Shown here piece after piece: positions 1 through 50,512 of a DNA stretch of 64,000 bases (position 1 is its first letter; each line of letters starts with the position of its first letter). Under the pieces are notes generated by a model. The model made no database searches. It was not told the origin of the DNA and was given only the letters and a program-made list of their open reading frames with translations. Made by a program: the position numbers and the translations under genes. The stretch comes from Candidatus Latescibacterota bacterium (GTDB lineage Bacteria > Krumholzibacteriota > Krumholzibacteriia > Krumholzibacteriales > Krumholzibacteriaceae). Location of the stretch: the NCBI GenBank assembly GCA_019038625.1, contig JAHOYU010000110.1, positions 6,209-70,208 of the forward strand. Direction: 5' to 3'.

Positions 1-1
1 A

Positions 2-5596: not shown

Positions 5597-6151
5597 ATGA
5601 AGAAAGTTATAATGCTTGCAATGGCTCTGATGCTTGTTGCCGGTACCGTGAGCGCTGGACCGGTGGCTTACATTGGTCTTTATGGCGACGCCGGCCACTT
5701 AGTAACAGAGTATATGAATCCGGGCATGACCCAGTTCACGCTGTGGACCTGGGTACTGCCCAGCGACAACGGCGCGATGTGTGCCGAGTATAAGGTCCTG
5801 GCGCCTGTTGGCCCAGGCATGATCATTCAGGCGGCTGTAGTGAATCCTCTTGCGACCGTATCGATGGGTTCTGCCATTGGTGCTCCGGGCGCGAGTGTAT
5901 GTTTTGGATCCTGTCAGACCGACTGGTTCTGGACCTACCAGGTACCTATCTGGAGTACGGACACTGTCGCTGGATTTTTCGAGCTTTTTGCTCATGACGA
6001 TGCTGGTGGCCCTCAGGTAGCGAACTGTATCCTTCCGGATTATCCTATCGAACCAGCTACTAAGTATACGAAGTTCGGATTGAATCAGGATGGCGTAATT
6101 GGATCCGGCACCGCCAGCTGGGGTGCTGTCAAGAGCCTGATCAATGACTGA
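5597..6151 (+). CDS. Small secreted protein, paralog 2 of the tandem family.
   Basis: There is a GGGAG RBS and a signal peptide (MKKVIMLAMALMLVAGTVSA/GP). It is highly similar to the 6252 gene (about 85% nucleotide identity over several hundred bp). The C-terminus is GTASWGAVKSLIND. Confidence 0.8.
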   Translation: MKKVIMLAMALMLVAGTVSAGPVAYIGLYGDAGHLVTEYMNPGMTQFTLWTWVLPSDNGAMCAEYKVLAPVGPGMIIQAAVVNPLATVSMGSAIGAPGASVCFGSCQTDWFWTYQVPIWSTDTVAGFFELFAHDDAGGPQVANCILPDYPIEPATKYTKFGLNQDGVIGSGTASWGAVKSLIND

Positions 6152-6251
6152 TGACGCCTAGTCATCAATAAAGTTGAAGTGGGAATCTCTCATCCCCGAG
6201 AGATTCCCATCTTTTAAGACTACTTGTTATGTTATGATAGGAGTGAGAATT

Positions 6252-6815
6252 ATGAAGAGAGTATTGATGGTTGTTGCAGCTCTCGCTCTGTTAGCTGGCA
6301 CAGTAAGTGCCGCCGGACCGGTTGCTTATATCGGCCTTTATGCAGATGCAGCTCACACTGCTTGTGAGTACTGGAATCCGGCCATGACCATGTTCACGCT
6401 GTATACCTGGGTAAATCCCAGTGACAATGGTGCGATGTGTGCCGAGTATAAGGTTGAGGCACCTGTAGGCCCGGGCATGATCATTCAGGCTGCTGTAGTG
6501 AATCCGGGTGCGAGCGTATCGATGGGCGCTGCCATAGGTGCTCCGGGCGCGAGTGTATGTTTTGGAATGTGTCAGACTGACTGGTTCTATACATACTATG
6601 TGCCCATCTGGAGCCTGGACACTACCGCTGGTCTTTTTACACTTCATCCTCATGATGTTGCTGGCGGACCTCAGGTAGCGAATTGTATTCTTCCTGATTA
6701 TCCGATCGAGCCTGCGACGGTTCTGAACAGCTTTGGTTTGAACACGGTTTGTGAAGAAGCTATCGCAAACGACGAAGCAAGCTGGGGAGCAATCAAGAGC
6801 ATGGTCAGCGAATAA
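6252..6815 (+). CDS. Small secreted protein, paralog 3 of the tandem family.
   Basis: A TAGGAG RBS precedes an internal ATG at 6252 within the 6174 ORF. The signal peptide is MKRVLMVVAALALLAGTVSAAGP. The C-terminus is ANDEASWGAIKSMVSE. A strong terminator follows. Confidence 0.8.
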   Translation: MKRVLMVVAALALLAGTVSAAGPVAYIGLYADAAHTACEYWNPAMTMFTLYTWVNPSDNGAMCAEYKVEAPVGPGMIIQAAVVNPGASVSMGAAIGAPGASVCFGMCQTDWFYTYYVPIWSLDTTAGLFTLHPHDVAGGPQVANCILPDYPIEPATVLNSFGLNTVCEEAIANDEASWGAIKSMVSE

Positions 6816-6944: not shown

Positions 6945-9900
6945 TTGTCACTATATCCTCTCTCTTTCAGGTCGATCACGAGAGCGGTCCTGCTGGTAAT
7001 CTTCGGTCTGCCTTTATTGCTTTCGAGTCTGATGGGAGCGGGAACGCGGCTCGTTTCTTCTGATATCTCGTCTGCCGTTTTTGAGATCGATATCCCTGTT
7101 GTCGACATTACGAGGATGGAAGATGGACGGGTAAAGCTCAGAATCGAGGGGTATGGCACATTCTCTCCAGAGGGTGCATCGGAGCTTCCGGGGCGAACCT
7201 TTCTTGTGGCAGTTCCAGCCACAGGTGTTGTTCGAGTCGAATGGAGCATCATCTCACAAAGTGACCTGGGTATCGTCGATCTGTACAGGGTCCCTGGAAA
7301 GAGGCTGGTCGAGGGTGAGGACGGCACGGCGTTGACCGAGTTTTTTGAAGCGGACGATCCATGGGATGGAGAGATCAGACTGGAAAGAGTGGCTGGTGGC
7401 AAGCCCTCTTTTATGGGGAGGCAGAGAGTAATTCCCATAAGGGTAAATCCTGTATTCAGGGCGGGTGGCCGTTTTGCGGTGGCGACGAAGATCAGGGTCA
7501 CAGTTCTTTCGACAGGCGTTGATCGGGCAGAGATGGTCCCGGATGCAGAAGTGGTGAGGATCTCTGGAGCATGGAGAAGCCTCTATGACGAACTGCTTGT
7601 GAATCCCCTGGATGTGGAGAAGCATGTACTACCGCTGAAAAGCCGTATGTTCGTGAGATCTCCCTTCGAAGCCGGTAAAAGGCTGAAGATCAGGATACCC
7701 GAGACGGGACTATACTCGATCAGGGCGGATTCTCTTATAGCTGCCGGTCTTTCGCCCGACCTTTCAAATACCGGGTTTGCTCTGAAAAAATATTATTTCG
7801 ACGGGAACGAGCCTGGTCTCGTCAGGAAAGTCGATATTCCGATACACATAATAAAAGGAGAATCCTCACCGCCCGATATCTTTTCGGGGAACGATCTGGT
7901 CATATTCCATTCGTATGGTATCAAGGACGATGTCGATGCGGGTGATGTTCATGCCTCATATACGGATTTCAATATCATCTGGCTCGAAGAGGACGTCCCG
8001 GGGGTCCTGATGACGGAGTCGGTCATGGAGACAGGATCGGCGCTGCTCGTTTCCGTCTTCGATGCCACCGTTATCGAGAGAAAGGATGCCTGGTACGAAA
8101 AAAATATCAATGCAGGGACTGAAGATTTCTATTTTCTGAAGGAACCGGTGTTGGCCCAGGCCGTTATGCCGTTTACTCTGAACGATCCCGAGCCACTTTC
8201 GACATTCGATCTGACCGTTCGGTTGATGGGCCTCAAAAGACTCGTTCTACACCAGATCCTGACCTTTCAGTTGAGAAATTCGTCTGGTACATACGATATC
8301 GGTTCTGATGAGGTATCCGGGACGAACAACGAAGTATATACATTCAGCGGACTTTCGTCCGGGTACCTGGTAGATGGAGAAAACGAACTGCTTATCTCGA
8401 GTGGGACCATGGGGGGATTTACAGTGAACGATTTCACGGTTGATTATCCCGCACGTTTCACCTCGTCCGATAACATGCTTGAGTTCATATTAAAGGTCGC
8501 CCTGCCAGTCCAACAGGTGGAAGTCACCGGTCTAGACATCGATGAAGGATACGTCATCGACATATCCGCCCCCTCCTCGCCTGTGTTTTACGATGTCCCC
8601 CATGAAAATTTTCAGGACAATACCACATCATTTTCGGCGATCCTTAAGTTGCAGACTTCATCCGACTCAAAATACGTATTTCTTGCCAGAGGGGCAGGCG
8701 GTCATATCAAGGTCGACTGGATCTCGGTGGACGACCCTTCGTCCCTCATGGCCGAAGGGGGCCCTTTCGATGCTCTTGTCATCTCACACCCGGATTTTCT
8801 CCCCCCGACTGAGACCGTACTGTCCGACTATGTGGCCTGGCGGGAGGGTATGGGCTTCAGGACCCTCACCGTCAATATCGAAGACATATACGACGAGTTC
8901 AACGGAGGACTGAAATCGAGCGATGCGATCAAGCGGTTTATAAAGTACGGTTTCGACAACTGGGGAGTTGAATATGTGGTCCTGGTGGGGGACGGGAATG
9001 AAGATCACAAACAGGTATTCTATGATCCAAGCCCACTCAGGGGATCACCCCCCGACTTTATTCCTCCATTTACCTATAGCATAGATGTGATCGGGAGTTT
9101 CTATGATGATGAAGTGATCTCCACCGATAAGTATTACACATATCTGGACGAGACATGGCCAGAGAGCGGGTATCCGGATGTCTTTCTTGGTCGGCTTCCA
9201 GTGGCGAGCAATATCGAGCTCAGGGCTATGATGACCAAGATCAGGGAATACGAGAATACGGAAAATGATGATGGCTGGAGGAGGAATGTCGTCCTGTTCG
9301 CTGATGATGCCTGGTCCGACTATCCCAACTACCGTTATAAGTCGGGAGAACTTCACTTCGAGCAGGGGATGGAGAGGATTGCCCTGGCGATTGAGGACGC
9401 GCTTCCCGGTGGGTTCGATGTGGACCGGTTGTTCCTTGCCAGATGGACAGATGGGGCTCACGAAATAGGCGAGTCGGGAGTGGTGGTGTTCAGTGAAGCG
9501 ACAGATTCGACGAGGACATATTTTACTCCATATCTGCTCGACAGGCTGAACGAAGGAGCCCTTTTCTTTTCCTTCCAGGGGCATGCTCACAGGGCGCATC
9601 TGAGCAGCGAGTCCGGATTTTCGATGTTCAGCCAGTACAGGGACCTCAACCAGCTCACTGCGGCCAGGAATTTTGTTTTTCTCGGTGCGGGATGCCATAT
9701 CAGCCAGTTTGCTATTGTCTCCGAGCTCGGCAGGCTCAGCGATGGGCCGAACGGGGACTGTATTACCGAACAGATGCTTTTCAAGTCCCGGGCCGGAGCT
9801 GTGGGAACGTATGCCAGCACGGGGTTTGAGGTCCTGGACCAGAACGAGTATTTTTTCGACACGCTTCACGATTATATCTTCAAGACACCGCCGACGGACT

Positions 9901-10991
9901 CTATTCCTCCCTCCAGGACAGGGACGGGCGCACATTGGGTCCTGGGCGAAATGATAACCATGGCAGAAATCGAGCACATAGGTACCACCTATTATGGGTT
10001 TGATCAAACGTTCCGGTACGTATTACTGGGCGACCCCATGCTGACGATCGATGCCGGACCTCCTAATATGACTCTGGAAGCCGACTGGGGTGACGGCTGG
10101 GTCAGCCTGGACAGTGACACACTTAGATCGGGGAACAGTTCTAACACCGGAAGACTGAGATTCACCGCCACGGATGTAGTGGGGTTGGGAGGAGTGAAGT
10201 TCGTGGTCGACGGGGAGGACCGGACCGGTGATCTGGAGATATCGCGGTCAGGTGACGAATCTCTGACATGGCCGAGAAGCTGGTCGGCAGAGACGGACTA
10301 TGTAGTGTCGCTCGACGATCATTCGCTGTTGTTCTCGGTCCTGACTCCGGATGGGACAGAAGCGGGAAGTATCGAGTTGATGGTTGAGACCGGTGTAAGG
10401 CTTTTTCACAGTGGTGATATAGAGATATTTCCCGGTGGAGAAGCTCCCCCGGAGGGTGAGTTTCGTATTGTGATAGATCTTCCCGTCTACCTGCAGGAAC
10501 CTCCTCTCATGGAACTGGACGGAATCGAGTTTGCCGGAGCGAATCTGAGTGTGCCGGATGGAGCCGATTCGACGCACTGGGAAGGGACATTCGAAGCCAG
10601 GTTCGTGGGTGGCAGCCACACCTTCACGGTTTACGTGGGACAGCAATCGGTCGAATTCACCTTCCTGATATCGGGGAGCGAACTGGTAATGGACAGTTAT
10701 AACTACCCCAACCCGTTCAGGACGGGTACGAAAATATGTTATACGCTGAATTTCCCCGCCGATTCGGGAAACATAACGATATACAATGTAAGCGGGCGAC
10801 TTATCAGGACGCTGCCAGTCCCTTCGGATATGCTTGAAGCAGCAGATTATAGTGCTGCGAACTTCGTCTACTGGGACGGCAGGGATATGGCCGGTGACCG
10901 AGTTGCCAACGGCAGCTATATCATACTTCTCGAGATGGTTAAGGACGGCAGGGATACACGGTTTCAGTCCATCTCGATCAAACTCGAGTAA
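6945..10991 (+). CDS. Large secreted peptidase C25 (gingipain-like) family protein with a T9SS C-terminal sorting domain.
   Basis: A hydrophobic signal-like N-terminus follows a TTG start. The catalytic dyad context is FQGHAHRAH...(37 aa)...LGAGCHISQF. The C-terminus (YNYPNPFRTGTKICYT...IYNVSGRLIRTL...GSYIILLEM...SIKLE) is a T9SS CTD. The exact start is uncertain (TTG at 6945 or a downstream start). Confidence 0.8.
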   Translation: MSLYPLSFRSITRAVLLVIFGLPLLLSSLMGAGTRLVSSDISSAVFEIDIPVVDITRMEDGRVKLRIEGYGTFSPEGASELPGRTFLVAVPATGVVRVEWSIISQSDLGIVDLYRVPGKRLVEGEDGTALTEFFEADDPWDGEIRLERVAGGKPSFMGRQRVIPIRVNPVFRAGGRFAVATKIRVTVLSTGVDRAEMVPDAEVVRISGAWRSLYDELLVNPLDVEKHVLPLKSRMFVRSPFEAGKRLKIRIPETGLYSIRADSLIAAGLSPDLSNTGFALKKYYFDGNEPGLVRKVDIPIHIIKGESSPPDIFSGNDLVIFHSYGIKDDVDAGDVHASYTDFNIIWLEEDVPGVLMTESVMETGSALLVSVFDATVIERKDAWYEKNINAGTEDFYFLKEPVLAQAVMPFTLNDPEPLSTFDLTVRLMGLKRLVLHQILTFQLRNSSGTYDIGSDEVSGTNNEVYTFSGLSSGYLVDGENELLISSGTMGGFTVNDFTVDYPARFTSSDNMLEFILKVALPVQQVEVTGLDIDEGYVIDISAPSSPVFYDVPHENFQDNTTSFSAILKLQTSSDSKYVFLARGAGGHIKVDWISVDDPSSLMAEGGPFDALVISHPDFLPPTETVLSDYVAWREGMGFRTLTVNIEDIYDEFNGGLKSSDAIKRFIKYGFDNWGVEYVVLVGDGNEDHKQVFYDPSPLRGSPPDFIPPFTYSIDVIGSFYDDEVISTDKYYTYLDETWPESGYPDVFLGRLPVASNIELRAMMTKIREYENTENDDGWRRNVVLFADDAWSDYPNYRYKSGELHFEQGMERIALAIEDALPGGFDVDRLFLARWTDGAHEIGESGVVVFSEATDSTRTYFTPYLLDRLNEGALFFSFQGHAHRAHLSSESGFSMFSQYRDLNQLTAARNFVFLGAGCHISQFAIVSELGRLSDGPNGDCITEQMLFKSRAGAVGTYASTGFEVLDQNEYFFDTLHDYIFKTPPTDSIPPSRTGTGAHWVLGEMITMAEIEHIGTTYYGFDQTFRYVLLGDPMLTIDAGPPNMTLEADWGDGWVSLDSDTLRSGNSSNTGRLRFTATDVVGLGGVKFVVDGEDRTGDLEISRSGDESLTWPRSWSAETDYVVSLDDHSLLFSVLTPDGTEAGSIELMVETGVRLFHSGDIEIFPGGEAPPEGEFRIVIDLPVYLQEPPLMELDGIEFAGANLSVPDGADSTHWEGTFEARFVGGSHTFTVYVGQQSVEFTFLISGSELVMDSYNYPNPFRTGTKICYTLNFPADSGNITIYNVSGRLIRTLPVPSDMLEAADYSAANFVYWDGRDMAGDRVANGSYIILLEMVKDGRDTRFQSISIKLE

Positions 10992-22451: not shown

Positions 22452-22967
22452 ATGTCGAGAAAGCTAGGTTTTACGGGACTTATAGTGATAATGATCCTGG
22501 TCGGATGTGGTGCTGGCAGTGAAGAGAAGACCGCCGATGGCTGGCTCAGCTTCAACGAGGGCATGGAACTGGCCGCCAGTTCAGGGAAGCCCGTGATTGT
22601 CGATTTCTATACTTCATGGTGCAAATGGTGCAAGGTCATGGACAGGGACACTTTTTCCAATCCTGAGGTAAAAGCTGCGTTGGAAAAGGATTTTGTCACA
22701 ATACGGATAAATGCTGAGAATAGGAAAGATAAGCTCCGATATAAGGGCAAAGAATATACTCCTGTGGAATTGACGAGGTTGTTCAAAGTGAGAGGATTTC
22801 CCTCTCTTGCATACATGGAGAGTGATGGAGAACTTATCATGGTCGTGCCCGGTTTCAAAAAACCGGATGTATTCATGCCGACCCTGAGATATATTATAGA
22901 TGGATGCCACAGGAAAGGCGTCACTCTGGATCAATATATTCGGAATGGCGGAGAATGTGGGAAGTGA
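22452..22967 (+). CDS. Thioredoxin-family lipoprotein (WCxWC redox motif, COG2143-like).
   Basis: It has a GGAAGGAG RBS and a lipobox LVGC. The redox motif reads VIVDFYTSWCKWCKVMD. Confidence 0.8.
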   Translation: MSRKLGFTGLIVIMILVGCGAGSEEKTADGWLSFNEGMELAASSGKPVIVDFYTSWCKWCKVMDRDTFSNPEVKAALEKDFVTIRINAENRKDKLRYKGKEYTPVELTRLFKVRGFPSLAYMESDGELIMVVPGFKKPDVFMPTLRYIIDGCHRKGVTLDQYIRNGGECGK

Positions 22968-25721: not shown

Positions 25722-25842
25722 GATACCTCTTTCAAGCTCTTGATGATAGATGATTTGTATTGAATACGGTCAGATGGACAGCTATTATTCACAGGTCGCT
25801 AAGGCTGAGAGGCTTTTCCCGCTGTGACAGAAAGGAAATCTT

Positions 25843-27045
25843 TTGCGTATCGGTATGGTATTGAAGGGCAGGATACCCCCTCCTGATATCCGTGTGGAGA
25901 AGGAGGCCGGGACCCTGGCTGCGGAAGGTCACGAAGTTCATCTTCTTCTTGAGCGTGGAGAGGGAGAAGAACTGGAAGCCATGAACGGCCCTATCCACAT
26001 GTACCGGGGCGTTGAGATGGGCAAGTGGAGAGAGAAGTATCACAGGTACACTTTCAACTTCACATACAGGGATCGGCTTTGGGAAAAGGCTATCACGGAT
26101 TTTGTGAAAAGTCGAAAAATAGAGGTGCTTCATATTCACGATCTTCCGCTGGTGGGCGAAGCGGTCAGGGTCGGGCGAATGCAAGGTATTCCTGTAGTCG
26201 CTGATCTGCACGAGAATTATCCCGGCGGCCTGCAGGTCTGGTACACGAGCCAATTCAAAAAGAAGACCATATACGGGTTCAGGCGCTGGGCCCGGTACGA
26301 AAGAGAGATACTGAGAGAAGTCGATGCTATCATAGCGGTGATCGAGGAATCGAAGGAAAGGATCAAGGGGCTGGGAATTCCTGGAGAGAAGATCCATGTG
26401 GTTCCGAACACTGCTCATGTGGAGAGGATCAACATTCCTCTCGATCCGGCTATCACGGAAAAGTACTCGGACTATTTCATGATCTCCTATATCGGAGGCT
26501 TTGCTCCTCACAGGGGGCTGGACACCGTAATAAGGTCCGTTCCTTTTATGAAGGAGAGGATAAAGGATCTCAGGGTCGTTCTTGTGGGCGACAGGAACAA
26601 GCCATACATGGACTACCTCAAGAGACTTTCTGCCAGTCTCGGCTGCGAAGATACGGTCGAGATGCCCGGATGGCAGCCCTTTGAAAAAATCTGGAGCTAT
26701 ATCGATGCAAGTTCCGTCTGCCTTGTCCCACATGCGAGGAATCCGCACACAGACACCACGATCCCACACAAGATCTTTCAATACATGATGGTGAAAAAGC
26801 CGGTAATCGTGAGCGACTGCCCACCCCTGAAGAGGGTGATCGAGGATTCCGGTGGAGGTCTGGTCTTTACCTGGGACCGTCCCGAAGAACTCGCTGAGAG
26901 TGTGACGAGACTTTATGAGGATGAGGAAACCAGAAAAAATACAGGAGAGAGAGGGTGTGAAGCCTTCCTCGACCGTTACAACTGGGACAGTACCAGTGAT
27001 GAGCTCAAGGAGCTTTATCGTGGGCTGGCCAAAAGGAAGAAGTGA
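25843..27045 (+). CDS. Glycosyltransferase family 4.
   Basis: It has a GT4 N-terminal pattern and a C-terminal EX7E-like region (HTDTTIPHKIFQYMMVKKPVIVSDCPPLKRVIEDSGGGLVF). It starts with TTG after an AAAGGAAA RBS. The large antisense ORF (25789-27084) is judged a shadow ORF. Confidence 0.75.
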   Translation: MRIGMVLKGRIPPPDIRVEKEAGTLAAEGHEVHLLLERGEGEELEAMNGPIHMYRGVEMGKWREKYHRYTFNFTYRDRLWEKAITDFVKSRKIEVLHIHDLPLVGEAVRVGRMQGIPVVADLHENYPGGLQVWYTSQFKKKTIYGFRRWARYEREILREVDAIIAVIEESKERIKGLGIPGEKIHVVPNTAHVERINIPLDPAITEKYSDYFMISYIGGFAPHRGLDTVIRSVPFMKERIKDLRVVLVGDRNKPYMDYLKRLSASLGCEDTVEMPGWQPFEKIWSYIDASSVCLVPHARNPHTDTTIPHKIFQYMMVKKPVIVSDCPPLKRVIEDSGGGLVFTWDRPEELAESVTRLYEDEETRKNTGERGCEAFLDRYNWDSTSDELKELYRGLAKRKK

Positions 27046-28187
27046 GGGAATCGATGGAAGTGAAGCTGCTCGACCTGGTTGCACAGTATGATAAGATCAG
27101 GAGTGAGATAGAAGCCGCGGTCCGTGACGTCATGGAATCCCAATATTTCATCATGGGGCCGAAAGTAGCCGAGTTCGAACGATCCGTGGCAACATATTGC
27201 AGCGTAGAATATGCCACTGGTGTGGCCTCGGGATCCGATGCCATCCTTCTGGCCCTTATGGCGCTTGATATCGGCCCCGGAGATGAAGTCATCACGACGC
27301 CTTACACCTTCTTTTCAACAGTCAGTTCGATAACGAGGCTTGGAGCCACACCGGTCATGGTCGATATCGATCCTGCCACATATAACATCTCGCCCGAGAA
27401 GATCGAAGATGCGATCACGTCCAGGACGAAGGCTGTCCTTGTCGTGCATCTGTTCGGTCAGCTGGCGGAGATGGAGAGGATCTGCGCGATGGCCGATTCA
27501 CGCGATATCCCGGTCATAGAGGACGCGTGCCAGTCGATCGGAGCGTCGTATAAGGGGAAGAAAGCAGGTGCTTTCGGACTGGGTGGTTGTTTCTCATTTT
27601 TTCCCTCCAAGAATCTCGGTGGCTTTGGGGATGGCGGGATGGTAGTGACTGGAGATAAGGATTTTGATTTGCGGCTGCGCCTTCTGCGCGGGCATGGAGC
27701 GAGGGAGAGGTACTATCATGACGAGGTCGGGATCAACAGCCGACTGGATGCGATACAGGCAGCGGTCCTCGAAGTCAAACTGAAATACCTGGATGAGTGG
27801 AGTGAGGGAAGGCGCAGGAACGCCGCTTATTATTCCGAAGGACTGGCCGATCTGCCGGGAATCTCCACTCCAGTGACTGCCGAGGGAAATGTCAGCATCT
27901 TCAATCAATATGTGATTCGGGCAAGAGATAGAGATTCGCTCAAATCGTTCCTTGTCTCGCAGAGTATCGGTTGTGAGATATACTATCCCGTACCACTTCA
28001 TATGCAGAAGTGTTTTTCTTTTCTGGGGCAGTCGAAGGGAGACCTGCCTGAAGCGGAAAAAGCCTCTGAACAGACTCTGGCTCTGCCTGTCTACACTGAA
28101 TTGGCAGAGCAGCAGCAGGATTTTGTCATAGATAAAATAAAAGAATTTTATGCGGACAGGGAAGTAGAGCCCCTGGCCAGCACTTAA
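27042..28187 (+). CDS. DegT/DnrJ/EryC1/StrS family PLP-dependent sugar aminotransferase.
   Basis: The N-terminus (LVAQYDKIRSEIEAAVRDVMESQYFIMGPKVAEFE) is typical of the family. The active-site region reads SFFPSKNLGGFGDGGMVVT. It overlaps the upstream GT4 gene by 4 nt. Confidence 0.9.
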   Translation: MRESMEVKLLDLVAQYDKIRSEIEAAVRDVMESQYFIMGPKVAEFERSVATYCSVEYATGVASGSDAILLALMALDIGPGDEVITTPYTFFSTVSSITRLGATPVMVDIDPATYNISPEKIEDAITSRTKAVLVVHLFGQLAEMERICAMADSRDIPVIEDACQSIGASYKGKKAGAFGLGGCFSFFPSKNLGGFGDGGMVVTGDKDFDLRLRLLRGHGARERYYHDEVGINSRLDAIQAAVLEVKLKYLDEWSEGRRRNAAYYSEGLADLPGISTPVTAEGNVSIFNQYVIRARDRDSLKSFLVSQSIGCEIYYPVPLHMQKCFSFLGQSKGDLPEAEKASEQTLALPVYTELAEQQQDFVIDKIKEFYADREVEPLAST

Positions 28188-28207
28188 CGAAGGAGAAAAG
28201 GCTTCCA

Positions 28208-29362
28208 TTGAAAGTAGTTTGTTTTTCGGAGATCCAGTGGCAGTACGTCAGGACTAGAAAGCAGCAGATCATCGGCCGCTTTCCGGCAGACTGGGAGATT
28301 CTTTTCCTGTCCAGCGTCGTTAAGGGTAAGAAGAACAATTTCAGGCCTGCCAGGGACGGTAATGTCACGCATGTCTGTATCCCCGCTTTGAAGAACTTTC
28401 CTCAAAAATTACTGAGGATTCTTTTTTCCTTTCCTCCTGCCAGGTTCCTGTGGAACATAATCCTGTTTCTCTGGGTTCATACCATACTTTCCATTACCGG
28501 TTTTTCCGGAGGAGCCCGGGTCTTTTTCGTCTCCAATATTTATTACGCGGCGGTGCTACCGCTATTCATGCGATCTTTCATCCTGTATGATTGCAACGAT
28601 GATCCTCTTGAATTTCCTGGCTCGCCCCCCTGGGCGGGGAAGTATTTCAGGAAACTCGTATCCATATCCGATGTCCTGGTCGCGGTAAGCAGGGGATTGG
28701 TAGAACGCCTTCATTCAATGGGAGTGAAGAATGTGAGCTATATTGGCAATGGTGTCGATTATGGACTTTTCAGGAAGGCGGCCGAACAAGGCATTCCTGA
28801 AGAGATGAAAAAATTCAATAGACCTGTTCTGGGATACTCTGGGGCGATAGCTCCGTGGTTCGATATGGAACTGCTCAATATGGTCGCGGAGTCTTTCCCG
28901 GAAGCATCGATAGTCTTGATGGGGCCACTTTTCGAACCGTTGCGCGAAAGACTCGAGAAGTTGATAGCCGAAAAGGGTAATGTTTTCTATGTTGGATCGA
29001 AACCATATGAACGACTGGGTGCCTATATCAATGCGCTTGATATCTGTATGATCCCGTTGCAGATGAACGAACTCATGCGTATGGCGGATCCCAACAAGAT
29101 ATATGAATACGCTGCCGTGGAAAAACCGATCGTTACATACAAATTCGCTCCCGAGATGGAAGAACTGGATGGGATGATATATCTGGCGGAAAGCCGGGTG
29201 GAATTTGTCGAGGGTATAAGGAAAGCGCTGAAAGAGGGGGCGGATTCTGCGAAGTTGCGTCAATTTGCGATGGCATGCAGCTGGCAATCACGTGCCGATG
29301 CTATGATCGCGTTGATCGAGAGAAGATGTGCTTCAGGAGACTACGGAGAGGAGTGTCGATGA
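28208..29362 (+). CDS. Glycosyltransferase (GT4-like, group 1).
   Basis: It starts with TTG after a GAAGGAGAAAAGG RBS. The composition is consistent with a GT-B fold. Its stop overlaps the start of the next gene (ATGA). Confidence 0.6.
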   Translation: MKVVCFSEIQWQYVRTRKQQIIGRFPADWEILFLSSVVKGKKNNFRPARDGNVTHVCIPALKNFPQKLLRILFSFPPARFLWNIILFLWVHTILSITGFSGGARVFFVSNIYYAAVLPLFMRSFILYDCNDDPLEFPGSPPWAGKYFRKLVSISDVLVAVSRGLVERLHSMGVKNVSYIGNGVDYGLFRKAAEQGIPEEMKKFNRPVLGYSGAIAPWFDMELLNMVAESFPEASIVLMGPLFEPLRERLEKLIAEKGNVFYVGSKPYERLGAYINALDICMIPLQMNELMRMADPNKIYEYAAVEKPIVTYKFAPEMEELDGMIYLAESRVEFVEGIRKALKEGADSAKLRQFAMACSWQSRADAMIALIERRCASGDYGEECR

Positions 29363-30576
29363 AACAGCTTGTGCAGTTAATAGCAGGGGTTATTCTTTTG
29401 TCTACCGTTTTGTCCGGATGTTCCGGCAGAGACGGGAATCAGGATCTTTACATCTTCGAGGAACTTGAGACTGCTTCTTCTCTCGAAGATCCGTCCGGCA
29501 GGGTGGAGAGATTGAAGATATTCGCAGCTAACAATCCTGATCATCCAGCAAGATCAATAGCCTATTCAAGGATATTTGAGACTATGGTCGTCGACATGAA
29601 CGACGAAGACGGGTCTTTGGTATGGTTCGGTCAGGTAATGGAAAAGGAGAAGGAACCTTTTATCCGAGGCGACCTTCTATACAGGAAATTCGCCTTTCTG
29701 TGGGAAAAAGACAAAGAATCCGCGATTCTACTGGCCGAGCAGATACTGGCCGGGTCAGAGAGCGATTACCGTCTGCATCTGTACCTTTGTTACTATCTGA
29801 TGAGTGAGGAATCCAGCGATAAGTTAACAGAAAAGCTGTTCGAGAAACTGCAGGGATTGACCAGCAACGAATATAAATTAAAACACGCAAGATCAGTTTA
29901 TGGTGAGTTCCTCTTTGACCGGAATAGAGAGGATGAGGGCGTGGCTGTTTTGGCCAAAGCGGGAGATTATCCTTTCGCCAACGAAAAACTGGCCACGTAT
30001 CTCTGGGAAAAGGATATGCGGAAGGAGGCCATCGAGTCTTATATCATGTTTGTCGCTGGAGCGCCTGGTGCGAGAGAGCATGTAAATGTTGACAGTCTGT
30101 ACAGCCTCGTTTATCCGGACAGTAAGGATCTCAATGATCGGATCTCGGCGATGAGGATAATCGATGAGGGTGTGCTTCCCGATATGGATTTTTCCGATTT
30201 GAACGGAATGACTCACAAACTGTCGGAATATCGGGGCGATATACTCATAATCAGTGCATGGAGCCCTACCTGACCGCCTTGTATTGCGGAGTTGCCGCAA
30301 CTGGAAGAATTGAAGAAGTCCGAAAGTGAAAAAGGTTTCAAGCTCCTGCTTATCGATTCCAAAGGCATGGTGAAACGCAGCAGGGAGATACTCGAGGAAA
30401 AGAAAGTGACGATCCCTCTGTTGATAGATTCGAGGTTCTATTCGAGGAATGTCCTTACGACTATGTATACTCCGACTACGATCGTCATCGACAGGGAAGG
30501 CCGGTTGAGAGCACGTCTGGTCGGTGGTTCGAAAGATTTCGAGCAGGTTCTGATGGATATCGTCGAATCGTTGTGA
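29359..30576 (+). CDS. Candidate selenoprotein: a lipoprotein with a TlpA/redoxin-family thioredoxin-like domain containing an in-frame UGA (Sec) at 30271-30273 in a U-P-P-C redox motif.
   Basis: Two same-frame ORFs (29359-30273 and 30292-30576) are separated only by TGA. Read-through gives ...GDILIISAWSPT-U-PPCIAELPQLEELKK..., matching the redoxin consensus ([20 protein letters not shown]) with U at the first Cys. The downstream sequence has the rest of the fold (IPLLIDS..., PTTIVIDREGRL). A lipobox LSGC is present. A SECIS-like hairpin lies 10 nt downstream of the UGA. Confidence 0.6.
30284..30300 (+). promoter_or_regulatory. Candidate bacterial SECIS hairpin.
   Basis: A 6-bp stem (TTGCGG agttg CCGCAA) starts 10 nt after the UGA. 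The apical loop contains G-U 18-19 nt downstream of the UGA, within the range reported for bacterial SECIS elements. Confidence 0.45.
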
Positions 30577-34233: not shown

Positions 34234-36183
34234 ATGACATTTAGAATTATTTATTCCGCAGGAATAATTTGCATACTGACACCTGTTCTTCTCGTCCTTT
34301 CCACCGTGCCATCACAGGGAGCGTGGAACGAAACGGGACGCTCTGTATGTACCGCGACCGGTAACCAGTGGTATCCGACAATAGTCAGGGGAGACGCAGA
34401 TAACGCTCTCATGATATGGCAGGATTACCGCTCGGGCAGTGGCGACATTTATATACAGAAGATCGATGGAGGCGGTGACACGCAGTGGACTCCGAACGGG
34501 ATAGCTGTGTGTACGGAGCAAGCCGACAGGGAATTCTTCCGGCAGGCTGTTTCTGATGGATCGGGAGGAGCGATCCTCGCGTGGACGGATCATCGAGCCG
34601 GTCTCATCGACATCTTTGTCCAGAGGGTGGATAGCGGGGGAGTCCCCGTCTGGTCAGGCCCGGGTATCCAGGTATCCACAAGTTCAGGGAATGATTACTA
34701 CCCGGCAATCTGTCCCGATGGTCAGGGGGGTGTTCTGCTGGCATGGCAGAGAGGGCTCGATGAAACGAGTGTGATCAGGGTTCAGAAGGTGAATGGCTCT
34801 GGAGAATCACAATGGACATATGGTGGGATAGAACTGTCCGACGAGTCAGGACTATTTCTTCCGGTCATCGTCGATGACGGGAGTGGGGGCATGATCGCCA
34901 TGTGGGTAGCAGGGGATGCTTCGGCCGGCATAATAATGGCTCAGCGCATAAGTGCAGCCGGTCAGCGAATGTGGGGCCAGTCCGGAGTCGCTGTCTGTCC
35001 TCCGGGCGTTGCAAACAGTTTTCCGGTGATACTCGGGGATGCTGCGGGAGGGTGCATGGTCGTCTGGGAAGATCTTCGCAACGGCCAGAGGGACATTTAT
35101 TCTCAAAAACTGGACGGTAACGGCGACCTGCTCTGGGATCCGGAAGGAGTGCATGTTTCAGTCAGTGAAGGAGAAAAATGGTTTCCCCAGGCGGTCCGTA
35201 TCAATGATGGCGGTATAATCGTCGTCTGGGTGGACGCGAGAGATGATGACTCTGATCTTTACGCGCAGAGAATCGGGCCGGAAGGAGATCTTCTATGGTC
35301 TGCCGGAGGCAACCTGGTCTGCGGAGCTGTTGGGCATCAGCTGAATCCGAGGATGGAGATGAGTTCCGGGGGCGATATCATCGTCGTATGGCAGGACGGC
35401 CGCGGTGACGACTATGATATCTACGTTCAACGTGTCGATATTGCCGGCCTGATATTATGGGAAACCGGTGGTCAGGCCGTTGTCTCACTTCCGGATGATC
35501 AACGTATTCCCGAGATAATTACCGATGATGCCGGAGGGGCGCTTGTCACCTGGGAACAGTGGGACGGCGACTCTGACATCTATAGTCAGCGGATTGACAG
35601 AGAAGGACATTATCTGGCCACCTCGCTGGCCGGGTTTACAGCTGACTCTCGGAGTGACATGATAGAGATCGTCTGGACGATGAATGAAAGTGAGCCGGAA
35701 ATGGTGTTCACTATCTCCAGGCAGGCATCCGGAGAAACTATCTTCGGACTTCTCGATATCGGGCCGGAGGAATCTACGGAGGAGACTTTTATTGTCAGAG
35801 ACAGAGATATCGAGCCCGGTGTGGAATATAGATACAGGGTCTCGGTGACAGGGTCAGAAGGTTTAAAACTACTTTTCGAAACGGCGCCACTGAGTATCGG
35901 GGCGGGAGTGAATATCGTCCGTCAGAACTATCCGAATCCGTTTAATCCTGTTACGACCATAGCCTATGTACTGGCGGCGGACTTGAGCGTCGAGCTGACC
36001 GTATATGATGTGTCCGGACGACGGATAGCTGTCCTTGAGGAGGGGATTCAGCTGCGAGGAAACCATGAAGTCGTGTGGAATGGAACCGATATCAGAGGAA
36101 ACAGGGTTTCGTCCGGTGTCTATTTCTACAGGTTGAGAGCGGGGAAGGATCTGTTCACGAAAAAGATGGTGTTACTCAGATAG
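34234..36183 (+). CDS. Secreted beta-propeller-like repeat protein with a T9SS C-terminal sorting domain.
   Basis: It has a signal peptide. About 8-9 repeats follow of roughly 55 aa each (DIY.Q[KR][IV]D..G...W...G..V). The C-terminus (NIVRQNYPNPFNPVTTIAY...VYDVSGRRIAVL...GVYFYRLRAGKDLFTKKMVLLR) is a T9SS CTD. Confidence 0.8.
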   Translation: MTFRIIYSAGIICILTPVLLVLSTVPSQGAWNETGRSVCTATGNQWYPTIVRGDADNALMIWQDYRSGSGDIYIQKIDGGGDTQWTPNGIAVCTEQADREFFRQAVSDGSGGAILAWTDHRAGLIDIFVQRVDSGGVPVWSGPGIQVSTSSGNDYYPAICPDGQGGVLLAWQRGLDETSVIRVQKVNGSGESQWTYGGIELSDESGLFLPVIVDDGSGGMIAMWVAGDASAGIIMAQRISAAGQRMWGQSGVAVCPPGVANSFPVILGDAAGGCMVVWEDLRNGQRDIYSQKLDGNGDLLWDPEGVHVSVSEGEKWFPQAVRINDGGIIVVWVDARDDDSDLYAQRIGPEGDLLWSAGGNLVCGAVGHQLNPRMEMSSGGDIIVVWQDGRGDDYDIYVQRVDIAGLILWETGGQAVVSLPDDQRIPEIITDDAGGALVTWEQWDGDSDIYSQRIDREGHYLATSLAGFTADSRSDMIEIVWTMNESEPEMVFTISRQASGETIFGLLDIGPEESTEETFIVRDRDIEPGVEYRYRVSVTGSEGLKLLFETAPLSIGAGVNIVRQNYPNPFNPVTTIAYVLAADLSVELTVYDVSGRRIAVLEEGIQLRGNHEVVWNGTDIRGNRVSSGVYFYRLRAGKDLFTKKMVLLR

Positions 36184-42678: not shown

Positions 42679-43341
42679 TCAATGGTACTCGTTGCCGCGT
42701 TTATCCCAGAATCCTTCGGTCAGGGTAAGATGGTCTTTTTCCCAGGCGATAAAGCCTTTTTCCTTAAGACGCGTTATAAGGCGGGAAAAAGTCTCTGGAA
42801 TGGTTCCGATCGATGATGCGATGTCCTTTTTCGAGAGTTCTATCTTGTATTTTTCGTGGATCCCGTAATTTTCGGAAAGGAACATGAAAAATCTCGCTTC
42901 TACATCATAAGAGGTGAGGTAGAGGATCCGTTCGGCAAGGTATCGCTGTTTCTTCATCAGCATCGCGATGAAGCTGTTTCTAAATTCAGGTTTTTCGAGC
43001 ATTCGCATGAGCATCCCCCGGGTCATACAGAAGATCGAGGAATCAGCTATGGCCTGCGCGTTCGTGGGATATCGGTTAGATTCAAAAAGGACGATCTCCG
43101 CGAAGTTCTCGGGGGGTTCGAGGAATTTTACCGTGATCTCTCTGCCATCGGCAGAGGTCTTGGTCAGCTTGATGCGGCCTTCGAGGAGTATGAACAGTTC
43201 GTCACCGGGCCGGCCCTCGAAGAAAATGAAGTCACCCTTTTCGAATTTCCTTATGACACCTGAATTCTCGATCTCGGCAAGGATTTCCTCATCAAGGCCC
43301 CTGAATATCTCCGCGTCTCTTATCCTCGAACTCATCTGCAC
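42679..43341 (-). CDS. hcpR: Crp/Fnr family transcriptional regulator, a likely HcpR-type regulator of hcp.
   Basis: It has a cNMP-binding domain (FIFFEGRPGDELFILLEGRIKL) and a C-terminal HTH (ASSIGTIPETFSRLITRLKEKG). It is divergent from hcp. A TTGAC-N4-GTCAA palindrome lies in the shared intergenic region. Confidence 0.75.
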   Translation of the reverse strand: MQMSSRIRDAEIFRGLDEEILAEIENSGVIRKFEKGDFIFFEGRPGDELFILLEGRIKLTKTSADGREITVKFLEPPENFAEIVLFESNRYPTNAQAIADSSIFCMTRGMLMRMLEKPEFRNSFIAMLMKKQRYLAERILYLTSYDVEARFFMFLSENYGIHEKYKIELSKKDIASSIGTIPETFSRLITRLKEKGFIAWEKDHLTLTEGFWDKRGNEYH

Positions 43342-43394
43342 GGTTAACCCTTTTATAAAAATAAAGTTACTTTTGTTAAAGAAAAGCGATATAC

Positions 43395-43408
43395 TTGACC
43401 CAGGTCAA
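43395..43408. promoter_or_regulatory. Crp/Fnr-type operator (candidate HcpR site) upstream of hcp.
   Basis: A perfect inverted repeat TTGACccagGTCAA lies about 82 bp upstream of the hcp ATG. A TAGATAAT -10-like element sits about 15-20 bp downstream of it. Confidence 0.55.
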
Positions 43409-43489
43409 GGCAAAACTCCCATAGATAATATTAAATAGCATCATGATCTGTAATTGATTGCCGGGGTAATGCCTCGAAAGGAGAGAAGG

Positions 43490-45130
43490 ATGGGAATGTT
43501 CTGTTTTCAGTGTCAGGAAACGGCAAAGAATGAAGGATGTATGGTAAGTGGTGTCTGTGGAAAAAAAGAATCTACAGCCAATCTTCAGGACCTGCTGGTC
43601 TATACGACAAAAGGATTATCGATCTACGCTCAGATAGCTGCGGAAAAAGGCGACAATATCACCGATATCGGCCGATACGTCGCTCATGCCCTCTTCGTCA
43701 CAGTCACCAACACGAACTTTGACGATCCAGCCATCGAAGCAGTGATCAGGGAAGGCCTGGAGATGAAGCGCGGACTCGCCACGAAATATGGCGGCGAGAT
43801 CAGCGGCACTCTTCACGATAGTGCTACCTGGGATCCGGCTCCCGGTGAGGACCTTCTTGAAAGAAGTAAAGAGGCGGGGGTCCTTGCCACCGAGAACGAG
43901 GACGCAAGGTCTCTCAGGGAACTTGCCATTTACGGACTCAAAGGCCTGGCGGCCTACTCTCATCATGCCCTCGTACTGGGTCATGAAAGCGACGAGATAT
44001 ACAAGTTTATCTTCAAGGCTCTCGTTTCTACGACGAAAGAGCTGCCCCTTGATGAGATGGTCGGTATGGTCATGGAAACAGGAAAGGTGGCCGTCGATAC
44101 GATGGCTCTTCTGGACAAGGCCAACACGACCGCATACGGGTCTCCCGAGATCACAAAAGTCGATATCGGCACAGGCTCGAAGCCGGGGATCCTCGTATCG
44201 GGACATGACCTGAAGGATTTTGAGGAGCTTCTGCGTCAGACTGAAGGAAAAGGGATCGACATCTATACTCATGGCGAGATGCTTCCCGCTCACTATTATC
44301 CCGAATTCAAGAAGTATGATCATCTGGTCGGGAATTATGGTGGCTCCTGGTGGAAGCAGGCATCCGAGTTCGAGTCGTTCAATGGACCTATTCTGATGAC
44401 GACAAACTGTATCATAACTGTAAAGGATTCATACAGGGACAGGATATTCACTACGGGTGCTGCCGGATACCCTGGCCTCACGCATATTGCTGACAGAGCA
44501 GAAGGTGGAGAGAAAGATTTCAGCGCGCTGATAGAGCTGGCCCTGAAGAGCGAGGCTCCCGTCGAGATCGAGACCGGTTCGATAACGGGCGGATTCGCCC
44601 ACAACCAGGTTCTGGCCCTTGCTGACAAGGTCGTAGATGCAGTCAAAAGCGGTGCCATAAAGAGATTTGTAGTAATGGCCGGATGTGACGGACGGCAGAA
44701 GGGCAGGTCCTACTTCACAGACGTGGCCGAAGCACTTCCTTCGGACACCGTGATCCTGACGGCCGGTTGTGCCAAGTACCGCTACAACAAGCTGGAACTC
44801 GGCGACATCGGCGGTATACCCAGGGTCCTGGATGCCGGACAGTGTAACGACAGTTATTCTCTCGCCGTTATCGCTTTGAAACTCAAAGAGGTATTCGGTT
44901 TCGAGGATATCAACGAGTTGCCATTGTCGTTTGATATAGCATGGTACGAGCAGAAGGCCGTAACGGTCCTTCTCGCACTGCTCTACCTTGGATTCAAGGG
45001 GATCCGCCTTGGACCGACGCTTCCCGCATTCCTGTCCCCGGGCGTAGCGAAAGTCCTGGTAGACAACTTCGATATCAAGCCGATCGGTGATGTCGAGGGT
45101 GATATAGCCGCAATGATGGCCGGAAACTAA
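43490..45130 (+). CDS. hcp: Hybrid-cluster protein / hydroxylamine reductase (class I-like Cys spacing).
   Basis: The N-terminus is [23 protein letters not shown] (CX2CX8CX5C). The roughly 550 aa length fits Hcp. An AGGAGA RBS precedes the ATG at 43490. Confidence 0.95.
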
Positions 45131-48341: not shown

Positions 48342-50360
48342 TTACCTGAGTAGCACCATCTTGCGATTGATAGTCCCGGTGCCGGAAGTCAGCCTGTAGA
48401 AATAGACTCCCGAATTCACTTTCGAACCATCGTCCGCCAGGCCCTTCCATGACAGTGTATGATACCCTGCCGGGAAATATCCGCTGGCCAGCTTTCTGAC
48501 GAGTCTTCCATTTACATCGAAGATATCGAGCGTGATCCTGCCTTCTGCTTCCAGTCCGAATTCTATCGTGGTCACGGGATTGAAGGGATTGGGGATGTTC
48601 TGTCCGAGAAATGGCATCAGGGGCGCTTCATCCGAGCCGGTCAGGTTGAGTTCCACATCGCAGAGGATCCAGTGGTCCGGATCGATCTCGACCGATGTTA
48701 CCGGGTCGAAGGTAATGATTGCGAACGATTCCTGCGATTCGTCGATCCAGAGGATCGTATCGATGACCCCTGAGGTGGTAGTGATCCTCATGTCCACCGG
48801 CATCATATAGGGAATAGCCTGAGTCTGTGTTATCGCGCAGGAGAGATGAGTCTCTCCGCCCGCTTCGAATACATTCCAGGTGAGGGAATAGACAGGCCGG
48901 TCCTCCCGAGTCAGCCACTGGTCGAAGAACCATGACAGAGACGCGTCGTAATGGTCTTCGTATACCTGCCTCATGTCGTCGGTGTCGGCGTATGAGAATC
49001 TGTATCGGGAGTCTTCGAGATATGCCTGTGTCGCCGTGAAGAATGTGCCGTCTCCGAGGACATGTCTGAGCATGTGAAGTACCCACGCCCCCTTGTGATA
49101 GACGACAATGTTGAAATAATACCATGGGTCGTCATTATCAGGATCCCGCATCACCGGGCCGTCCCAGAGGTGAGGAGTATCTTTCGTCTCCATATAGCTT
49201 CGCAGTTTTACCGCACCCTCGATGTGTTCGAACCAGAGAGCTTCGCTGTAACTTGCCCAGCCCTCGTTGAGCCATATATTTACCCAGTCGCTGCATGTGA
49301 CCATATCCCCGAACCACTGGTGTGCCAGTTCATGTACCCATATATAATCGTATTTATGCGAGCCGAGTGTGAGGGCTGCTCCATAGCTGGTGAGGGTCTG
49401 GTGTTCCATCCCTCCCCCGATGGCACAGTGAGCGATACCGTACTTTTCATCGACAAATGGGTATAGGCCGAATATAGACGAAAAGAAGTCCAGAACAGGG
49501 ACCTGGATATTGAAATCCTCCGTGGCCTGAGCGATCTTGGACGGATAGACATAGTTTGTCACCATCATCGTCTCGCCCGGAGCGTATACCCACGGTTCTT
49601 CGAGGAGGACGTAATCGGAAGCCGTCACGCTGAAGAGATAATTTGCCATCGGGTAATTTTCTTTCCACTGAAAACGACGGTAAGGCGCCCCCCAATGGGT
49701 CGTATCGCTGACTCCGATAAACTCGCCGTTTGAGGTAGCTGTGAGAAGGGGATCTACCGCGAGCCTTATGTCGAACAGGGCCTTGTCGTCAGGATAGTCT
49801 TTGCAGGGGTACCATGTCCTTGCGCTCCAGGGCTCGCTGAGCGAATAGATCACCGGAGCCCCGTCGTACGATCTGAAGAATAGTCCGGGATGTGCCGCTC
49901 CTGCAGGATAGCCCTGATAATAGATATCGAGGCTGAATGGTTCGCCGGTGGCCAGAGGTCCCGGGAGTTCTATCTGGAGGATGCTTCCCCCGTTGACCCA
50001 GGACAGTTCGCCATATCCGGAAGCGGTGACCGACAGGATCTCAAGCACCGGGTCGGTGTCTATATCCATGGTCAGAAATCCATCCACGAGGCTTTCGAAT
50101 TCTATCCCGATGCGCCCTTCGACTCTCTGAAGAATATGGTCTATTGCTATATCGATATCGTATCGGATGACATCATACTCCAGTTGGCTGGGAGTAGGAT
50201 CGGGCATCATCAGCAACCCTCTCTCCATAGAGGCCGAGGCTCGTAAAAGATCCAACTGCTGGATGATATCTTCATGTATGATCTCGAACCGGTCCTGTGC
50301 TTCGGTGAGGGAGGGAGTCAGAACGGCCATCGACAGGAGAATGATTGCGAGGTTTCTCAT
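48342..50360 (-). CDS. M1 family zinc aminopeptidase with a T9SS C-terminal sorting domain.
   Basis: It has GGMEH (a GAMEN-like motif) and HELAHQWFGDMVT...(18)...NEGWASY (HEXXH-X18-E). The C-terminus (FLGQNIPNPFNPVTTIEF...IFDVNGRLVRKL...GVYFYRLTSGTGTINRKMVLLR) is a T9SS CTD. The start is taken at MRNLAIILLSMAV (signal peptide). Confidence 0.9.
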   Translation of the reverse strand: MRNLAIILLSMAVLTPSLTEAQDRFEIIHEDIIQQLDLLRASASMERGLLMMPDPTPSQLEYDVIRYDIDIAIDHILQRVEGRIGIEFESLVDGFLTMDIDTDPVLEILSVTASGYGELSWVNGGSILQIELPGPLATGEPFSLDIYYQGYPAGAAHPGLFFRSYDGAPVIYSLSEPWSARTWYPCKDYPDDKALFDIRLAVDPLLTATSNGEFIGVSDTTHWGAPYRRFQWKENYPMANYLFSVTASDYVLLEEPWVYAPGETMMVTNYVYPSKIAQATEDFNIQVPVLDFFSSIFGLYPFVDEKYGIAHCAIGGGMEHQTLTSYGAALTLGSHKYDYIWVHELAHQWFGDMVTCSDWVNIWLNEGWASYSEALWFEHIEGAVKLRSYMETKDTPHLWDGPVMRDPDNDDPWYYFNIVVYHKGAWVLHMLRHVLGDGTFFTATQAYLEDSRYRFSYADTDDMRQVYEDHYDASLSWFFDQWLTREDRPVYSLTWNVFEAGGETHLSCAITQTQAIPYMMPVDMRITTTSGVIDTILWIDESQESFAIITFDPVTSVEIDPDHWILCDVELNLTGSDEAPLMPFLGQNIPNPFNPVTTIEFGLEAEGRITLDIFDVNGRLVRKLASGYFPAGYHTLSWKGLADDGSKVNSGVYFYRLTSGTGTINRKMVLLR

Positions 50361-50512
50361 CGTAGTAATTCCTTCCATGACTATAAGTTGCACTACAATG
50401 ATAGCATATGACAGCTCTTCTGGCAAGGGAGCGCGTGATCACCCGTTCTCTGCTGATATCTCTTGCGTGCAAGGCTCTTCATCTGTAAAGTAATGGGAGA
50501 CAGGAAAGTACG

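Follow-up and report, generated by a model that had tools for sequence, protein, structure and literature searches.

An in-frame UGA probably read as selenocysteine in an exported TPR-TlpA lipoprotein of Candidatus Krumholzibacteria

TlpA-like selenoproteins with a UxxC motif, in which selenocysteine (Sec, U) takes an active-site position and the selenocysteine insertion sequence (SECIS) lies in the coding region, are well established, and a further member would be no surprise for the specialist. Several families of the UxxC TlpA/redoxin type are already listed in a 2026 review of the prokaryotic selenoproteome (PMC13188914). The consensus for the bacterial SECIS (bSECIS), which corresponds to the model of Zhang and Gladyshev as summarised in that review (PMC13188914), allows a spacing of 16–37 nt and has a small apical loop with G-U. 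The efficiency of recoding in Escherichia coli is the subject of another study (PMC4513850). BSepDB left out genomes labelled only ‘bacterium’, which is the kind of genome that carries the family considered here. The present work deals with a 64-kb stretch of contig JAHOYU010000110.1 (hereafter the window, to which all coordinates refer) and, within it, with a gene for a lipoprotein that combines a tetratricopeptide repeat (TPR)-like domain with a TlpA-like redoxin domain. This TPR-TlpA family is so far annotated only as truncated hypothetical proteins. It is proposed, with a probability of about 0.9, that the in-frame UGA at 30271 encodes Sec and that the gene specifies a genuine exported selenoprotein of Candidatus Krumholzibacteria. 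The locus has one continuous open reading frame (ORF) under selection, a conserved UGA at the nucleophilic position of a U-x-x-C motif and a hairpin constrained at the RNA level.

On the + strand, the segment 29359–30576 forms a single gene of 405 codons, Sec305 included, followed by a terminal TGA. Its frame has only one interruption, the TGA at 30271–30273, and the next in-frame stop is the TGA at 30574–30576. Around the UGA, the read-through product is ...ILIISAWSPT-U-PPCIAELPQLEELKK..., and the predicted peptide across residue 305 is ...SAWSPT-U-PPCIAELPQLEELK. A second ORF listed at 30292–30576 shares this frame, and its TTG is merely the first possible start past the TGA. Re-reading of the sequence thus agrees with the preliminary description, which had seen in the two ORFs one frame broken by a single TGA and had expected gene callers to split it. 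Indeed, the public annotation divides the gene into a ‘hypothetical protein’ of 304 aa and a short ORF downstream of it. The same description had placed the UGA at the first Cys of a W-C-x-P-C redox motif. The position stands, as in alignments U falls on the first Cys of W-C-P-P-C in the thioredoxin-family protein 3KCM and on that of the CxxC motif in TlpA and ResA. The motif itself does not, since the actual sequence is W-S-P-T-U-P-P-C, with the Trp four residues upstream of U. In SPT-U-PPC, the Thr adjoins U and the second Cys is found at +3, which is the thioredoxin-type UxxC arrangement. Membership in the peroxiredoxins (AhpC/TSA sensu stricto) was also considered and rejected: the PxxxTxxC/U motif is absent, the Thr being adjacent to U and the resolving Cys at +3.

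Pfam matches to AhpC-TSA (PF00578; E=3e-14, 53.4 bits for a cutoff of 26) and Redoxin (PF08534; E=2e-12, 47.5 bits for a cutoff of 26.6) both cover residues 273–392. They span residue 305, in line with the earlier claim that the redoxin fold continues past the UGA. The best match in the PDB (phmmer) is 3KCM from Geobacter metallireducens (E=3e-17), followed by TlpA (1JFU) and ResA, and the Foldseek matches are ResA, DsbE, TlpA, SdbA and Etrx. The AlphaFold model of the redoxin domain is poor (predicted local distance difference test, pLDDT, of ~40–60; shallow alignment). Therefore, the fold assignment rests on the Pfam and PDB sequence matches. Scores with the NCBIfam models ResA NF002854 (53.6 bits, cutoff 170) and TlpA NF047696 (49.1 bits, cutoff 230) lie below the equivalog cutoffs, so the protein is not an ortholog of either. 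With NF041054, which describes ResA-like WAxxUGC selenoproteins, the score is 43.6 bits for a cutoff of 300, and the motif here is AWSPTUPPC. By these comparisons, the protein is a relative of the ResA, TlpA and NF041054 families and a member of none of them. Upstream of the redoxin domain, a TPR-like domain of ~240 aa follows a hydrophobic N-terminus with a lipobox LSGC, which, as read from the sequence, points to an extracytoplasmic location. Cys21 of the lipobox is invariant in an 8-sequence alignment, and a lipobox-like motif is found in all divergent members. By its domain matches, active site, cis-Pro loop and predicted location, the protein thus falls among the TlpA/ResA/CcmG-like thioredoxin-fold oxidoreductases (cd02966).

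The UGA is conserved across the family. A protein search with the read-through sequence retrieved six orthologs of 304–310 aa (55–100% identity), all ending in ...SAWSPT, together with two full-length orthologs of 408 aa (51% identity) reading ...SPTCPPCIAELPQ.... At the DNA level, all truncated forms have TGA at the same codon, where the full-length form has TGC (Cys). In each ortholog the downstream frame is intact over ~101–112 codons, with no other stops or frameshifts. Scans of the GTDB species genomes and of JGI metagenomes added 13 and nine loci of the family, respectively, most of them labelled Krumholzibacteria. Every one of these loci that covers the site has TGA, within a motif SPT-U-P[PST]C or U-MPC. 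Altogether, TGA occupies this same codon both in the window gene and in loci L001–L005, L007–L018, L020–L027 and L039–L042; the TGA-bearing orthologs display ~36–87% protein identity and belong mostly to metagenome-assembled genomes (MAGs) labelled Krumholzibacteria. The nucleotide alignment of the site (A4) holds 22 distinct 60-nt sequences; three partial loci add to these. In 18/18 sequences the UGA is preceded by the Thr codon ACC, and in 17 of these 18 it is followed by C.

A HMMER search, run exhaustively against 1.84 billion cluster representatives with the Cys ortholog as query, yielded ~17 clusters for the N-terminal domain, with identities as low as 36%. Every representative of this domain that reaches the active site ends exactly one residue before the Sec/Cys position, and the post-UGA part is present in the same database as separate ORFs of 87–100 aa. 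In four of the most divergent members, for which DNA was examined, the TGA is again present, the downstream domain is intact and the synteny is the same. The family comprises ~17 clusters at 50% identity with Sec versus one recent Cys sub-lineage. The post-UGA segment is under a constraint comparable to that of the upstream part (ratio of non-synonymous to synonymous substitution rates, dN/dS, of 0.07–0.27; Nei-Gojobori). Moreover, codons +1 to +3 after the UGA (P-P-C) keep their amino acids while varying synonymously, which indicates that they are translated.

The Cys form is represented by L006 (ERZ25073601 NODE_2)/P0005 and by P0006, with TGC at the UGA codon; L006/P0005 is syntenic with the window gene. 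In this syntenic ortholog U and the catalytic Cys therefore line up, as the preliminary description had wished to see verified. In a neighbour-joining tree, the Cys form is nested inside an all-Sec clade and is 80–82% identical to its Sec neighbours. Sec (UGA) is thus ancestral, and the Cys form arose by a recent one-nucleotide replacement. Sequence comparison thus establishes the predicted Sec/Cys pair as well as the fold.

Some public records of the family carry unexpected labels or structures. The window protein is labelled ‘Bacteroidales bacterium’ in GenBank and ‘Candidatus Latescibacterota bacterium’ in nr, and its orthologs Krumholzibacteria. For one ortholog, L018 (DATKWS010000182.1), the label is ‘Patescibacteria group bacterium’, which probably results from mis-binning. 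On a 1123-bp ENA contig, the 233-aa protein P0009 has the N-terminal domain of the family as its first half and a fragment of MiaA (IPPT, PF01715) as its second half; it is probably an assembly chimera.

Ten nucleotides past the UGA starts a SECIS-like hairpin, with stem arms at 30284–30289 and 30295–30300 and a loop at 30290–30294. The G-U of the loop lies 18–19 nt from the UGA. Sequence and folding both bear out this element, which the preliminary description had noticed and likened to a bacterial SECIS. In the minimum free energy (MFE) fold of the window, the hairpin is enlarged to 30278–30307, with a bulge. Its loop AGUUG, 6-bp stem, spacing of 16 nt and stability of -11.2 kcal/mol agree with all four published bSECIS constraints, under rules loose enough for 11% of the TGA triplets of the window to pass. 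The same constraints are satisfied, with the same loop located 16–17 nt from the UGA, in 16 of the 18 Sec orthologs. This count was made on MFE structures; the bare 6-bp core (-7.2 kcal/mol) just misses the cutoff of -7.5 kcal/mol, and in an ungapped bSECIS scan, which considers the core only, nearly all orthologs fall below the requirement.

The conservation of the hairpin exceeds what the protein sequence demands. Synonymous pair identity of its six codons, ATT GCG GAG TTG CCG CAA, is 0.98, to be compared with 0.51 +/- 0.17 (maximum 0.89) for 55 other columns in which the amino acid is conserved (Mann-Whitney p=3.7e-5). These codons are, in addition, mostly minor ones here (TTG 9% of Leu, ATT 16% of Ile, CAA 18% of Gln, GCG 25% of Ala). 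The stem is invariant in the first 18 sequences, so that covariation cannot be assessed among them. When divergent members were added, L039 was found to have a compensatory U-A to C-G change (synonymous ATT>ATC with CAA>CGA), L040 one U.G wobble in the stem and L042 one broken outer pair; the observed covariation score was reached by 1/500 shuffles. The Cys ortholog L006 keeps the hairpin nearly unchanged just past its TGC, with a loop AGUUA that is also found in the Sec-form L010. Judged from its sequence, this hairpin is a probable ‘fossil SECIS’, which agrees with a replacement of Sec by Cys in the very recent past.

Several findings weigh against Sec insertion. The stability of the hairpin is ordinary (z = -0.08 relative to shuffles) and, as said, more than one TGA triplet in ten satisfies the same loose bSECIS rules; because its stability is not significant, the weight of the hairpin as evidence comes from its conservation. 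Stem covariation amounts to a single compensatory event, and a G-G mismatch in L003 weakens the hairpin to -6.9 kcal/mol. Three registers for a lower stem, pairing Pro/Ser codons with Glu-Glu codons, were tried and discarded, their covariation being no better than that of shuffles. Neither with gathering nor with permissive thresholds did Rfam yield a match near the gene, its only match in the whole window being a tRNA at 14929. Neither tRNA-Sec nor selA, selB or selD was found in the window or in ~150 kb of related loci: ARAGORN reported only tRNA-Asp in the window and 28 loci, and Pfam detected no SelA, SelB or SelD among ~30 window genes, where LepA is the only elongation factor-like GTPase. 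This negative result is uninformative, since the window, which belongs to an 89.8-kb contig, is a small part of the MAG. Finally, no paper on Sec use in Krumholzibacteria was found, a search of the selenium literature on Krumholzibacteria and Latescibacteria having returned no relevant match.

Site-specific recoding of the UGA to another residue, for instance Cys or Trp carried by a near-cognate or specialised tRNA, with stimulation by the hairpin and without canonical Sec machinery, is the main residual alternative, if an improbable one. The evidence for read-through speaks to the decoding of the codon and not to the identity of the residue, and no Sec machinery was seen in the window or the related loci. 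On the other hand, the position is that of the catalytic Cys of a CxxC motif, a classic Sec site, the 5-nt loop with G-U and the 16 nt spacing correspond to the SelB-type bSECIS consensus, and UxxC TlpA-like selenoproteins are known elsewhere. Furthermore, UGA was retained family-wide although a single-nucleotide change to TGC is viable, as L006 demonstrates. This suggests that the residue inserted is better than Cys. A narrower version, in which Krumholzibacteria would be devoid of canonical Sec machinery and would use a hairpin-stimulated route inserting Cys or another residue, or a non-canonical tRNA, is slightly more improbable still. A first glimpse of a Sec-decoding trait in the phylum, within a family that would be almost obligately Sec-containing, is much more likely than such exotic recoding.

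The other explanations are either excluded or very unlikely in view of UGA conservation, dN/dS, synonymous variation and stop usage. In one of them, the locus would make two products, a TPR-only lipoprotein ending at the UGA and a redoxin part translated from an internal start. Gene callers do predict a separate downstream ORF of 69–105 aa in several MAGs. UGA recoding is never fully efficient, and a truncated TPR lipoprotein is probably a by-product, which counts in favour of this arrangement. However, the predicted internal starts differ among orthologs, and the promoter scan gave no + strand promoter-like site inside the gene (no ribosome-binding-site scan was made). A C-terminal fragment would have neither signal peptide nor first beta-strands nor active-site nucleophile, and the Cys ortholog is a single 408-aa protein. 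The P-P-C codons, conserved as amino acids with synonymous variation, are located upstream of the TTG at 30292. Two separate products are accordingly very unlikely.

It can also be imagined that the gene is a decaying pseudogene, or that the TGA is a sequencing or assembly error, with the downstream ORF as a remnant. This would fit with the public annotation, which stops at the TGA, and with the failure to see Sec machinery in the window. Non-equivalent lesions and neutral evolution would then be expected. Instead, at least 22 divergent loci that were assembled independently, in different studies and from different environments, have the same TGA, and identities of 36–87% exclude redundant copies of one assembly. 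A check of the relatives for scattered stops or frameshifts, suggested by the preliminary description as the mark of a pseudogene, found none, the TGA being at the identical codon throughout. The shared UGA and the low downstream dN/dS support the original view of a genuine selenoprotein, and decay or error is hardly credible. As for genome-wide reassignment of UGA to Trp or Gly (genetic code 4 or 25), which some uncultured lineages practise and which the Patescibacteria label of one ortholog might evoke, its likelihood is negligible, because TGA is the commonest genuine stop of the window (18/32 well-supported genes) and terminates this very gene, while no other Pfam-supported window gene requires UGA read-through, a search for other TGA-split genes in the window gave only antisense-frame artefacts of real genes, and homologs have Cys at the aligned residue, neither Trp nor Gly.

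Thus, Sec insertion at residue 305 is the preferred explanation. The features of the gene and of its upstream neighbours are collected in Table 1.

Table 1. Coordinates in the window of the candidate selenoprotein gene, its elements and its operon partners
Feature	Position	Strand	Basis or remark
Sigma-70-like site	25760–25788		Upstream of the operon genes
Conserved upstream operon partners	25843–29362	+	Synteny
GT4 glycosyltransferase	25843–27045	+	
DegT/DnrJ/EryC1 aminotransferase	27042–28187	+	
GT1-type glycosyltransferase	28208–29362	+	
Shine-Dalgarno-like GGAGAGGAG	29345–29353	+	5 nt before ATG 29359
Complete coding sequence of the predicted selenoprotein	29359–30576	+	Reading frame and orthologs; public annotation: 304-aa hypothetical protein MBU8921862.1 and unannotated/short downstream ORF
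Lipoprotein signal peptide, lipobox L-S-G-C	29359–29421	+	Read from the sequences without a signal-peptide predictor
All-alpha TPR/HAT-like helical repeat domain, about residues 25–265	29431–30153	+	No Pfam match
TlpA/ResA-like thioredoxin-fold (Redoxin/AhpC-TSA) domain, residues 273–392	30175–30534	+	Spans the UGA
In-frame UGA, predicted to be read as Sec (residue 305)	30271–30273	+	Context ACC-UGA-C; same codon in orthologs
Redox motif U-P-P-C	30271–30282	+	Aligned to WCPPC of PDB 3KCM and to TlpA/ResA; CPPC in the Cys ortholog
SECIS-like core hairpin, 6-bp stem UUGCGG/CCGCAA, 5-nt loop AGUUG	30284–30300	+	Folding and conservation
Pro372 codon, cis-proline loop M-Y-T-P-T-T facing the active site	30472–30474	+	Invariant columns; TPTT aligns with VPET of 3KCM
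True stop TGA	30574–30576	+	Same codon is a stop here and a predicted Sec codon 101 codons upstream

In the mechanism that we infer, from the residue inserted and its dependence on SelB to the redox direction and the physiological substrate, SelB carrying Sec-tRNA(Sec) would be recruited by the hairpin as the ribosome meets the UGA, and Sec would be inserted. The lipoprotein would then be exported and lipid-anchored in the cell envelope, where, once mature, it would catalyse thiol-disulfide reduction or isomerisation. A substrate disulfide would be attacked by the selenolate of Sec305, and Cys308 would resolve the selenenylsulfide. By analogy with TlpA and ResA, re-reduction could be ensured by a membrane electron donor of the CcdA/DsbD type. 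The TPR-like domain probably serves the recognition of a partner or substrate.

The gene is the last one of a + strand operon in which it follows the GT4, DegT and glycosyltransferase genes. Its ATG overlaps the stop of the glycosyltransferase gene (ATGA, 29359–29362), which suggests translational coupling; the same 4-nt overlap is found in L001, L002, L003, L005 and L039. Orthologs share the order GT4, DegT aminotransferase, glycosyltransferase and candidate selenoprotein gene, followed by a rhomboid or beta-CASP gene in convergent orientation. The invariant association with amino-sugar and glycosyltransferase genes hints at a role in envelope biogenesis, and the substrate may be related to the co-transcribed glycan-synthesis genes. 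The scanned region has no more terminator-like sites than its shuffles have, and none of them is close to the TGA. The neighbourhood shows no link to cytochrome maturation genes. About 6.4 kb upstream, 22452–22967 encodes a second exported thioredoxin-like protein (Thioredoxin_7/DsbH-like, 171 aa), a gene that is syntenic in L001 and L006 and uninterrupted by a stop.

Other parts of the window are rich in secreted proteins. Three tandem paralogous genes (4880–5422, 5597–6151 and 6174–6815) code for small secreted proteins that have no Pfam match and share a C-terminal SWGAIKS[LM] motif. The products of the last two are 73% identical, and that of the first is 29% identical to the product of 6174–6815. 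Grouped with them is a Cys-rich secreted ORF (4159–4803), and on either side of the group lies a giant Peptidase_C25 protein, gingipain-like and with type IX secretion system (T9SS) sorting domains (2–3640 and 6945–10991). The G+C content is 0.43 in positions 1–4000, which encode the C-terminal part of a C25/CARDB/FG-GAP/T9SS protein, versus ~0.50–0.53 elsewhere. T9SS C-terminal sorting domains (Por_Secre_tail, FlgD_ig, CHU_C) are unusually dense in the window (2–3640, 6945–10991, 34234–36183, 48342–50426 and 56041–57627) and have peptidases (C25, M1) or Ig-like domains as their fusion partners, a density that fits a proteolytic lifestyle of the FCB group. A hybrid-cluster protein (Prismane, E=3.5e-169), a marker of anaerobes or of nitrosative stress, is encoded divergently to a Crp/Fnr-family regulator at 42679–45130.

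Sec insertion at this locus would imply that Candidatus Krumholzibacteria, an uncultured phylum of the FCB group for which the searchable literature yielded no selenium use, decodes selenocysteine. As the family is almost entirely Sec-containing, strong selection for selenium chemistry in a redox step of the envelope is suggested. The analysis also corrects a systematic mis-annotation, the gene being cut at codon 304, or split and labelled hypothetical, in every public MAG examined. The invariant 17-nt hairpin and its one compensatory variant provide a compact, testable candidate SECIS for the lineage, and co-transcription with glycan-synthesis genes could guide functional work.

The nearest known counterparts are the catalogued UxxC TlpA/redoxin selenoproteins (PMC13188914), which likewise have a thioredoxin-fold redoxin domain with Sec in place of the first Cys of CxxC, an in-frame hairpin of the coding region directly after the UGA, Cys homologs, and a function predicted from homology. 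Compared with these families by description, the present one differs by its ~240-aa TPR-like N-terminal domain, its lipobox, the S-P-T-U-P-P-C motif, the fixed glycosyltransferase-DegT-glycosyltransferase operon synteny and its occurrence almost only in Krumholzibacteria. Like NF041054, it has a ResA/TlpA-like domain with Sec expected at the first active-site position, the match covering residues 265–382; unlike NF041054, it displays AWSPT-U-PPC instead of WAxx-U-GC and a different N-terminal region. With ResA of B. subtilis, TlpA of Bradyrhizobium, CcmG/DsbE, 3KCM and Etrx1/2 of S. pneumoniae, it shares the fold, the position of the CxxC motif, the cis-Pro loop and an anchor outside the cytoplasm. 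Etrx1/2 are lipoproteins as well, and 3KCM, with C-P-P-C, has the same dipeptide, whereas Sec in place of Cys and the extra TPR-like domain set the present protein apart from all of these. As in SECIS elements of the E. coli fdhF type and in the bSECIS, the putative recoding signal is a stem-loop of the coding region immediately 3' of the UGA; its apical loop is small and carries G-U, and the spacing is 16 nt. In contrast with the fdhF-type element, this predicted SelB site has a short, invariant 6-bp core, sits at the lower limit of the spacing and has no demonstrated equivalent of the bulged U.

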